Shown here: in pieces, positions 5,145 to 19,405 of the stretch | Position numbering within the stretch: position 1 is the first letter of the stretch | Layout: the number at the start of each line of letters is the position of its first letter | Assembly (NCBI RefSeq): GCF_004010195.1 | Contig: NC_057746.1 | Location: 9,437,183 to 9,484,380, forward strand | Source: Chiloscyllium plagiosum | Taxonomy: Eukaryota | Direction of reading: 5' to 3' | DNA length: 47,198 bases | Notes under the pieces: model-generated | Databases searched by the model: none | Told to the model about the DNA's origin: nothing | What the model saw: only the letters and a program-made list of their open reading frames with translations | Translations under genes and position numbers: made by a program

Positions 5145-5160
5145 GAAACGAAAATGAAAA
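5145..5160 (+). promoter_or_regulatory. ISRE/IRF-E-like element upstream of TRIM ATG
   Basis: GAAACGAAAATGAAAA has three GAAA cores, including GAAANNGAAA, 35-50 bp upstream of the start codon. Confidence 0.6.
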
Positions 5161-5194: not shown

Positions 5195-5611
5195 ATGGCC
5201 GCTGACAAGCAGGTTTTAATCTCGACTGAGGACTTAACCTGCTCTATCTGCCTGTCCCTGTTTGTGGAGCCGGTGCAGTTGGAGTGCGAGCACAATTTCT
5301 GCAAATCCTGCATCCAGGCGTATTGGGAAAACCAGGGGAAGGTGGTGTCCTGCCCGGAATGTCGCGCAGTTTCCCAGCAGAAGAGTTATAAGAAGGCCAG
5401 AGTGTTGGCCAATCTCTGTGAGAAAGCCCGGCAGCTGGAGCTGAACCCGGGGCTGCAGCAGGAAGGGGGTTCCCGCTGTCTGGAACACGATGAGAAGCTG
5501 AAGCTGTTCTGTCAGGACGACCAGGCTCTGATCTGTGTCATTTGTCGAGATTCACCCGCACACTCAGGCCACAGCTTCCTGCCTGTCACTGATGCAGTGA
5601 GAAAGTACAAG
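5195..5611 (+). CDS. TRIM (RING-B-box-CC-B30.2; TRIM39/RFP/nuclear factor 7-like) coding exon 1: RING + B-box2
   Basis: ATG at 5195 (aagATGg). C3HC4 RING CSIC..CEHNFC..C..CPEC and B-box CLEH..FCQDD..ICVIC..H..H are both intact. Ends AAG|gtaaga, 417 bp, phase 0. Confidence 0.95.
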
Positions 5612-5934
5612 GTAAGAGGCGAGAGAGAGAGAGAGCGCGCCTTCAGCTTGTGACTGGGATTGCAGGAGTGAAGGGCTGCAGTCACTTGTTGCCTGAAGAC
5701 TCAGGATCCCCGGATCTCTGTTTGCAATCAGACCGCTGGATTTTTCTCTCTCTCTCTCTCTCCAACCCGGCATTGGGGGTTCCTTGCTGTTTAGCTGAGA
5801 GCCCGTTCAAAGCAGTGCCCAGAATCTGATTGCTCAGTGTGAGGGACACGGTCAGATCCTGTGTGGTTTGTGGGTGTCTGACTCTGGGCTGGGTCATTTT
5901 GATTAATGTCCTTTGTTTACCTTTGATCACCATT

Positions 5935-11999: not shown

Positions 12000-12095
12000 G
12001 TCCAGCTGCAATCCCCCTTGCATTCCATTGAGGAGAGAAAGAACAGGAAAATTGAATTGAAGCATCAGCAGGAGGAGAAGATTTCAGAACTGGAT
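12000..12095 (+). CDS. TRIM exon 2 (coiled coil)
   Basis: ttccag|GTC..GAT|gtaagt. 96 bp, phase 0/0, VQLQSPLHSIEERKNRKIELKHQQEEKISELD. 96 bp is the typical size of this exon in B30.2 TRIM genes. Confidence 0.92.
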
Positions 12096-12330: not shown

Positions 12331-12564
12331 GAACTCACACAATTCCTGGAGCAACACATCTCTGAACAGTTTGCCAAAATTCAACAATATCTTGAAGACA
12401 AAAAGGCATGCTTAATTAGAGAACTCCAAATGCAACGGGAAGATGCTTTTAAATTAATGGACTTAAATTTGGCAGAAATTAACAAAGAATTAAAATCCCT
12501 TGAAGAGGATGTATCGAAACTCCAAGCTGTCATTCACCAGGAAGACAATATCACTTTTCTCAAG
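12331..12564 (+). CDS. TRIM exon 3 (coiled coil)
   Basis: cctag|GAA..AAG|gtatca. 234 bp open frame ELTQFLEQHISEQFAKIQQYLEDKK...DNITFLK. Confidence 0.92.
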
Positions 12565-15443: not shown

Positions 15444-15466
15444 GAAATGAAAAGATTGCCAGAAAG
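15444..15466 (+). CDS. TRIM exon 4 (23-bp microexon)
   Basis: tacag|GAAATGAAAAGATTGCCAGAAAG|gtgcgt. A 23-bp exon is typical of this TRIM class, and its phase 2 end matches the next exon. Confidence 0.88.
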
Positions 15467-15554
15467 GTGCGTATGATTTATACCTACATATTTTCTAAAA
15501 ATGAGCATATAGCATTATTTTGAGAAATTAAACCAAGTTGTCGATCCAATTCAG

Positions 15555-15862
15555 ATACCTTGGGAGTGAAAAGAGTGAAAGTGAAGAAGAGACAAGTGAT
15601 GATGTTGGTGAAGATGACAATAAAAATGAAGGTGACAGTGATGATGATAAAAATGATGATGCAAGTGATGATGACCATGATGATGGTGAAATTAATGATG
15701 ACACTGATGGCGATGAAAATGAGAGAATTGATGAAGCAAGTGATCATGAATCAGATGAAAATGATGAAGACGTGGTGGAGTTTAGTGACCTGATACTGGG
15801 AAAGTTCAGGGGACCTTTGCAATATGCAATATGGAAGGAAATGAAAGAAATCCTCTCTCCAG
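15555..15862 (+). CDS. TRIM exon 5 (linker with long D/E-rich tract)
   Basis: ttcag|A TAC..CCA G|gtaaga. 308 bp, ending in the TRIM linker motif LGKFRGPLQYAIWKEMKEILSP. Confidence 0.9.
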
Positions 15863-18890: not shown

Positions 18891-19405
18891 TTCCAGCACC
18901 ACTGCTTTTTGACCCAGACGCAGCACATTCTCAGCTGACCGTGTCTGATGACCAGACTAGCGTAGAACTCGATGACATGAAGGTTGTTAATGAGTCGGAA
19001 TATCTTGATATCCTGGGATCAGAAGGATTTACATTTGGGATACACTACTGGGAGGTGGCAGTGGGAGACATCTCTGACTGGCTTATTGGTGTAGCCACTG
19101 AGTCAGCCACTGAAGAGGAAATGGTGGATATTTTCCCTGAACATGGATATTGGACTCTGTTATTGAGAGATGGAGATGAATATTATGCTAATGAGACTCT
19201 GAAATTGGATGTGAAACCCAGGATCATTGGTATTTACCTGGACTATGAGGGAGGACAGGTGTCATTTTATAATGCTGATGATATGTCTCATCTCTTCACT
19301 TACACTGACACATTCACTGGAAAACTTTTTCCATGTTTTGCTCTTGTTTGCAATGATAATGTTGAAAACAATGAGCCTCTTAGGTTGAACCACTTACTAA
19401 TATGA
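18891..19405 (+). CDS. TRIM exon 6 (PRY/SPRY = B30.2 domain) to stop
   Basis: ccaag|TT CCA. Motifs FDPDAAH, LGSEGF..G.HYWEV, GIYLDYEGGQVSFYN, KLFPCF; TGA at 19403-19405. Spliced CDS is 1593 bp = 530 aa. Confidence 0.95.

Follow-up and report, generated by a model that had tools for sequence, protein, structure and literature searches.

A shark TRIM paralogue with a strongly acidic B30.2 domain that appears to have lost a TRIM69-type basic site

TRIM69 is an interferon-stimulated antiviral regulator of microtubules in amniotes. The human protein grips the acidic tails of tubulin via K351, K352, R401, K402, R417, R419 and K425, and this binding is described as required for its antiviral activity (PMC12541436). 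More generally, the variable ligand-binding face of the B30.2 fold is formed by loops 3, 6, 7, 8 and 13 together with the exposed sheet A, and the same pocket sets the charge of the ligand in BTN3A1, TRIM14 and TRIM7, where basic pockets receive phosphoantigens, acidic peptides and carboxylates (PMC8203840). TRIM26 has a strongly acidic stretch within its B30.2 domain, namely a single large insertion of acidic residues that separates strands 4 and 5, and TRIM9 and TRIM67 lack 11 residues between strands 2 and 3 and have domains that are folded and functional (PMC12355088). In teleost finTRIMs and primate TRIM5alpha, both clustered TRIMs, the B30.2 loops diversify by positive selection (PMC2657112). 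Cartilaginous fish have an expansion of 'TRIM69' genes, of which the bamboo shark has 13 on Chr37, the chromosome that carries its MHC (PMC7677710).

Our literature search, with subscription journals, bioRxiv supplements and figures outside its coverage, found no paper on acidic shark B30.2 domains or on the charge or function of XP_043533868.1, the protein described here. For the expansion and positive selection of TRIM/B30.2 genes in sharks, the matches among those listed were, by title, on teleosts or cattle.

Gene model, domain layout and genomic context

The gene lies on the plus strand of a 47,198-nt stretch of the Chiloscyllium plagiosum genome (the window, in whose coordinates all positions are given), and the interval 18891–19405 was the last of its six coding exons. 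The coding part of exon 1 (5195–5611) encoded a C3HC4 RING (residues 16–56) and one B-box 2 (residues 93–131), both assigned with Pfam. Exon 2 (12000–12095, 96 nt) and exon 3 (12331–12564, 234 nt) encoded the coiled coil and were followed by an exon 4 of 23 nt (15444–15466), with which the RefSeq model agreed. Translation and structure model placed an acidic linker at the start of exon 5 (15555–15862), then a conserved segment and a helix that precedes the B30.2 domain. The entire B30.2 domain (PRY-SPRY) was encoded by exon 6, which starts after an AG acceptor with the remainder of a split codon and then runs for 170 codons to a stop; a different frame or strand for this exon was considered and rejected. 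Joined, the six exons gave a 1593-nt frame of 530 residues with zero internal stops and GT-AG introns, and there were no differences over 530 aa from P0123, the C. plagiosum protein XP_043533868.1, whose RefSeq name 'zinc-binding protein A33-like' is automatic. The predicted transcript was free of pseudogene features such as stops, frameshifts and broken splice sites. An assembly artefact was also rejected because the same features were found in independent models of three species. The pyrimidine tract of intron 4 (15467–15554), which is just 88 nt long, is weak; RefSeq places the junction at the same site. Fragments reminiscent of LINE reverse transcriptase and endonuclease, on both strands, made up most of the region 20000–47198, which is interrupted by an N gap near 41.5–41.8 kb; its listed open reading frames did not point to a second TRIM exon.

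Pfam matches exceeded the cut-off for zf-C3HC4 (39.3 bits), zf-B_box (46 bits) and SPRY (71.8 bits). PRY scored 26.3 bits, just below the cut-off, with 26 of 49 profile positions covered, and TRIM_CC scored 24.1 bits against a cut-off of 30. A sequence-only reading of this locus had called the RING intact, and all of its zinc ligands were indeed present (C16, C19, C31, H33, C36, C39, C53 and C56), as were I18, W44, P54 and R57; the zinc ligands of the B-box were complete as well. The full-length structure model predicted a long helix at residues 131–239, disorder at residues 260–327 (pLDDT under 50) and a folded B30.2 domain. When modelled in isolation, the B30.2 domain reached a pLDDT of 88.5, and the predicted fold matched TRIM21 (2iwg_B) with a Z score of 24.5 and an rmsd of 1.8 Å over 164 residues, and BTN3A and TRIM14 chains with Z scores of about 22–24. 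A search of the ESM Atlas returned only ordinary SPRY/PRY clusters. Taken from sequence and model, the protein appears to have the layout of TRIM class C-IV, with a RING, a B-box 2, a long coiled coil and a single-exon B30.2 fold. Membership of the finTRIMs was rejected, as this shark gene has only one B-box and finTRIMs have two and are specific to teleosts (PMC2657112).

The acidic linker that the sequence-only reading had pointed out spans residues 259–335 (about 15559–15789), holds 40 D/E and 4 K/R and is predicted to be disordered. Its coding sequence contains degenerate 27-bp GAT-rich repeats at 15613–15722, and its length varied from about 51 to 78 residues across orthologues. The sister paralogues P0048, P0055, P0060, P0064, P0080 and P0091 had linkers of −11 to −30 with B30.2 domains of +1 to −13, and acidic linkers occur more widely than acidic domains. 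Linker and domain charge correlated with a Spearman coefficient of 0.67 over 47 rows and of 0.47 over the 39 non-orthologues, all of them related and thus non-independent sequences. A complex prediction of linker residues 292–337 with the domain of the basic-channel paralogue P0072, run without alignments, scored 0.05, too low to speak for or against such a contact.

Upstream of the gene, a triple GAAA that resembles an IRF/ISRE motif was present at 5145–5159 on the plus strand, 36–50 nt 5′ of the ATG. The ISRE-like element of the earlier reading exists in this form, with one match in the window against 0.04 expected and matches in 4 of 100 shuffles for a pattern that was written after the motif had been seen, whereas plain GAAANNGAAA had four matches in the window against 2.84 expected.

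P0123 was located on one 35.0-Mb sequence together with three paralogues; this sequence is probably Chr37. The MHC gene tables of PMC10751288 assign four sawfish paralogues to chromosome 34 of that fish. Compared to the paralogue P0055, the B-box region (5429–5611, residues 79–139) was identical at 60 of 61 positions, the RING at 55 of 78, the coiled coil at 61 of 118 and the B30.2 domain at 88 of 169. Gene conversion between cluster neighbours is likely because the B-box is so much closer than the RING or the B30.2 domain. A 152-aa C. plagiosum protein from a 5-kb scaffold, P0125, repeats exon 1 with the same read-through into the intron (window 5195–5653) from about residue 11 and has a different N-terminus; it may be a recent duplicate, a conversion product or a haplotype. 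In single-cell data, 13 rows of 'A33-like' markers cover T, B, erythroid, kidney, goblet, proliferating and unknown cells (PMC11372145). XP_043533868.1 was absent from the rows of that supplement that we examined, and no marker row there could be attributed to the gene.

Charge of the B30.2 domain and its position

The B30.2 domain contained 18 D and 15 E against 4 K and 3 R and had a net charge of −26. The count of 33 acids to 7 bases in the sequence-only reading was exact, and the core strands were retained. For comparison, 175 domains were extracted from 120 listed of 964 long homologues and ten cluster members. After the removal of 15 domains for length (net −11 to +10) and of duplicates and orthologues, 134 were kept. 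Among these matches the net charge was −0.6±4.4 with a minimum of −13, which places the window domain at z = −5.8 and shows that its charge is not typical of paralogues. The background was gathered with the acidic query itself, and its bias, if any, is toward acidic relatives. A further 98 short relatives included none below −14. In 11 pairwise, non-independent comparisons, the window B30.2 domain was significantly more acidic in five (e.g. 27:5 and 26:7) and the RING, B-box and coil in none, so that the bias is domain-specific.

The substitutions named in the sequence-only reading were borne out in large part. Among the 134 relatives in the matches listed, the positions of E74-E75-E76 (19112–19120) were occupied by R in 132, K in 128 and G in 109, and the position of T69 by R in 63 and K in 24, where the window domain reads TESATEEE. 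The family R33 and F34 of the PERF segment, present in 132 and 130 of the same 134 relatives, were lost, and the beta2-beta3 (v1) segment (18971–19009), which ends in D39 by our hand-counted numbering, was shortened to 13 residues from the usual 19, six fewer than in the orthologues. For I50 the picture was mixed: its position carries R in 103 and K in 26 of these relatives, as claimed, but I50 lies outside the loops of the binding face, and K was retained there in two of the five non-bamboo orthologue species. Use of D/E codons in exon 6 was even (GAT 10, GAC 8, GAA 8, GAG 7), and the low GC3 (0.38) would favour Lys rather than Glu. Repeat expansion as the source of the exon 6 acidity was rejected, since the exon has no tandem repeat.

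To locate the acids, we defined the binding face as residues 27–39, 57–62, 69–84, 92–108 and 150–161 (64 of 170) from the alignment, the literature and predicted secondary structure rather than from 3D coordinates. The loops are labelled v1–v4. With this alignment-defined face, 21 of the 33 acids fell in the face loops, which accounted for about three quarters of the charge shift (20 of its 26 units), and the acids were not scattered away from the face. The net charge of the face was −17 compared to +2.7±3.6 in the relatives among the matches listed (z −5.5), and that of the remainder −9 compared to −3.3±2.5 (z −2.3). The greater shift of the face persisted when the comparison was limited to non-strand positions (permutation p 0.002; rank test p 0.038).

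The deletion was mapped with the offsets of PMC8203840 (BTN3A1 W350 = TRIM7 T382), counted by hand on the alignment, and the missing segment corresponds in this count to BTN3A 341–347, TRIM7 373–379 and TRIM25 488–494. Judged from the alignment, the deleted PRY loop would adjoin the pocket and not lie inside it. In TRIM25 this region forms loop L3 and touches the coiled coil, and the long linker comes after the last helix; in TRIM20 the B30.2 domain directly follows the helix and there is no such contact (PMC5940772). The effect of the deletion on docking is uncertain because the B30.2 domain directly follows a helix here, as in TRIM20. D39 is the equivalent of TRIM7 R385 and was D, Y or S across three bamboo-shark species.

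Acidic inserts as in TRIM26 and PRY deletions as in TRIM9 and TRIM67, which tolerate theirs in the same loop, provide a precedent for such changes. In contrast to TRIM26, the window domain is shortened and has substitutions across five loops, and TRIM9 and TRIM67 belong to another subfamily, for which we found no report of overall acidification in PMC12355088. BTN3A1, TRIM14 and TRIM7 share the fold with the window domain, and their basic pockets are opposite in sign to its face.

The TRIM69-type site and the galeomorph-shark orthogroup

The window protein resembles TRIM69 in its RING, coiled coil and B30.2 layout and in a B30.2 identity of 44%. The seven basic residues of the human tubulin-tail channel are all present in orangutan TRIM69 (P0319, 500 aa), and they align to K30, V31, E74, E75, L90, R92 and Y98 of the window domain, in which only two of the seven are basic. 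The pair R401/K402 is EE, and E76 stands at G403 (roles from PMC12541436). The domain differs from TRIM69 further in its net charge of −26, two loop deletions and the long acidic linker. A more specific link than general acidity was missed in the earlier reading, in that the lost bases appear by alignment to be those of the TRIM69 tubulin-tail channel. This apparent loss of a TRIM69-type basic site is what is new here. The net charge at the seven sites is 0, not negative, and R92 is near the pocket. Ten amniote TRIM69 sequences kept 5–7 of the seven basic sites with net charges of −5 to +3. Among the 134 other relatives in the matches listed, at least four of the seven sites were basic in 80 and only one or two in 19, so that an eroded site is not unusual; an acid at both the 401 and the 402 equivalent was found in none of the 134. 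The loss of the near-invariant R33, F34, R74 and K75 could equally be structural decay. In a quick B30.2-only tree, amniote TRIM69 (SH-aLRT 97) and the shark orthogroup (SH-aLRT 99) were separate clades on a backbone that was not resolved.

A quick maximum-likelihood tree gave an orthogroup of 14 rows with an SH-aLRT of 100. The bamboo sharks C. punctatum and Hemiscyllium ocellatum grouped with the window gene, at B30.2 net charges of −26 to −28, and the other orthologues had net charges of −28 (Mustelus), −21 (Heterodontus), −15 (Cetorhinus), −11 (Scyliorhinus canicula, a 274-aa partial model) and −8 (S. torazame). The acidity of the B30.2 domain is thus a trait of the orthogroup in galeomorph sharks (−8 to −28) and not unique to the window gene. 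Common to the orthogroup were a v3 loop of 17 residues compared to 21 and a long acidic linker of net −28 to −39. Four of the five non-bamboo orthologue domains likewise kept only one or two of the seven basic sites. The PERF deletion and the change of RK to EE were limited to bamboo sharks. Mustelus keeps RK and yet reaches −28, with 23 acids common to both domains, 10 found only in the window domain and 11 only in Mustelus. The catshark orthologues P0127 and P0032 combine a basic v1 loop (net +3 in P0127) with acidity over the remaining face, a pattern opposite to that of Mustelus. The net charge therefore recurs while the sites turn over, since Mustelus is equally acidic at partly other sites and the catshark v1 loop is basic.

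Full-length orthologues in two other bamboo-shark species were 94–96% identical, and the full-length models of seven species had neither a stop nor a frameshift. The orthologues found are thus open reading frames without pseudogene-like decay, and on this point, too, the sequence-only reading stood. No orthologue from whale, zebra or white shark was found among the 120 listed of 964 long matches or the 98 short ones, which is weak evidence of absence. On the bamboo-shark stem, the change per site was 0.25 in RBCC and 0.51 in B30.2, both long, and a burst specific to the domain is not indicated because the ratio of about 2 resembles that in four other lineages (1.4–2.0). The selection suggested in the sequence-only reading is not supported by these figures. 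Among four bamboo-shark proteins, 16 of 170 positions varied in B30.2 and 21 of 257 in RBCC, and 9 of the 16 variable B30.2 positions were on the face (p 0.10). The conservation of 31 of the 33 acids among bamboo sharks is what 94–95% identity alone predicts. Some annotated orthologue isoforms are shorter (the exon 2 segment is missing from P0023 and P0032, and P0124 is reduced by 87 aa), and the loss of these coiled-coil parts could alter dimerisation.

Ligand preference and alternative explanations

The suggestion that the domain may bind basic proteins is reasonable as a preference for basic ligands because the charge is atypical of paralogues, the acids are concentrated on the face and the reading frames of the orthologues are open. 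Tentatively, with a probability of about 0.45, we favour the reading that a paralogue of the cluster has switched from polyanionic to basic ligands and acts as a likely dimeric ligase or scaffold, most plausibly one that captures viral nucleic-acid-binding proteins. From what is known of the family, the protein would dimerise via its coiled coil and transfer ubiquitin by its RING. The acidic B30.2 domain would be repelled from microtubules, whose binding we assume to be ancestral in the shark paralogues, and from RNA. Two acidic B30.2 faces would capture a basic ligand by charge, the 77-residue acidic loops would add avidity, and the ligand would be brought to the intact RINGs, with the TRIM69-like binding of polyanions given up. 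The gene may be interferon-induced and have an antiviral role, to judge by its upstream motif, its family and the cluster that probably lies on the MHC chromosome. A viral nucleic-acid-binding protein would be the likeliest ligand because the charge varies so much between lineages. In a wider version, which we consider unlikely, sharks would have a charge-inverted TRIM69 paralogue whose tubulin-gripping basic channel became an acidic face. One antiviral cluster would then include both polyanion- and polycation-binding ligases, and the polycation-binding ones would recognise viral nucleoproteins or capsids by their charge pattern and change the sign of their charge from one lineage to the next as part of an arms race.

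A switch to basic ligands has to be weighed against a simple loss of binding. The protein might be a binding-dead decoy or regulator that co-assembles with its paralogues by B-box or coil and pulls them off microtubules or other polyanions, and its acidic linker might fill their basic channels as tubulin tails do. A TRIM69 mutant without the seven bases still associates with the wild-type protein and drives it off microtubules (PMC12541436), and the loss of near-invariant residues, the contrast between B-box (60/61) and B30.2 (88/169) identity with P0055, and the long acidic linkers in relatives with a neutral B30.2 domain (P0048, linker −30, B30.2 +1) are consistent with such a role. However, the coiled coil is only 61/118 identical to that of P0055, which argues against easy heterodimers, and mere loss of function predicts neither a gain of acids concentrated on the face nor the similar charge of Mustelus, which keeps RK. 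Overall, we regard a decoy as unlikely. Drift under relaxed constraint that affects a single redundant member of a large tandem family, with no role of the acidity in ligand binding, would agree with the acceleration of the whole gene on the bamboo-shark stem, with a B30.2 domain about as variable as RBCC among bamboo sharks and with the lack of whale, zebra and white shark orthologues among the matches listed. It appears improbable given the intact models of seven species, the preserved core strands and zinc ligands, a charge shift that is one-directional and face-biased, and the even use of D/E codons at a GC3 that would favour Lys over Glu.

Nucleic-acid mimics have carboxylates spaced like backbone phosphates and compete with DNA or RNA for a binding protein. 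If the carboxylates of linker and B30.2 were spaced in this phosphate-like way, they could block the grooves in which capsid, nucleoprotein or retroelement proteins bind nucleic acid, and these proteins would then be ubiquitinated. Mimicry was proposed in the sequence-only reading, with viral capsid/nucleoprotein, retroelement ORF1, histones or protamines as candidate targets; neither the mimicry nor any of these targets is supported by the analysis. The C-terminal half is highly acidic (40 D/E and 4 K/R in the linker, −26 in the B30.2 domain) and looks like a charge mirror of TRIM25, which has RNA-binding residues in PRY/SPRY, coiled coil and linker (PMC11445558). Net acidity alone is insufficient as proof of mimicry, and we regard this possibility as improbable, for the predicted disorder of the linker, its degenerate repeats and its variable length are unlike a shaped mimic, and the positions of the acids differ between equally acidic orthologues. 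A housekeeping role as a chaperone-ligase for the shark's own basic proteins (histones, protamines or ribosomal proteins) in the maturation of sperm or red cells seems very improbable. The first description of TRIM69 came from mouse spermatids (PMC11359181), and some bamboo-shark 'A33-like' genes mark erythrocytes, none of them tied to the window gene in the rows examined from PMC11372145, but the swing of −8 to −28 among orthologues fits conserved self ligands poorly and the IRF-like motif upstream speaks against such a role.

The gene is a real and strong outlier in a known family and has a specific link to the tubulin-binding site of TRIM69. Known charged B30.2 pockets are basic with anionic ligands, and a face of the opposite sign is a ready test of how the specificity of the fold changes, for which the orthologues form a natural charge series from −8 to −28. 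If drift is the explanation, the gene is merely one odd copy among many, and if it is a decoy, it shows self-regulation in large TRIM clusters. If its ligand is viral, it would represent charge-pattern recognition in the oldest jawed-vertebrate immune system.
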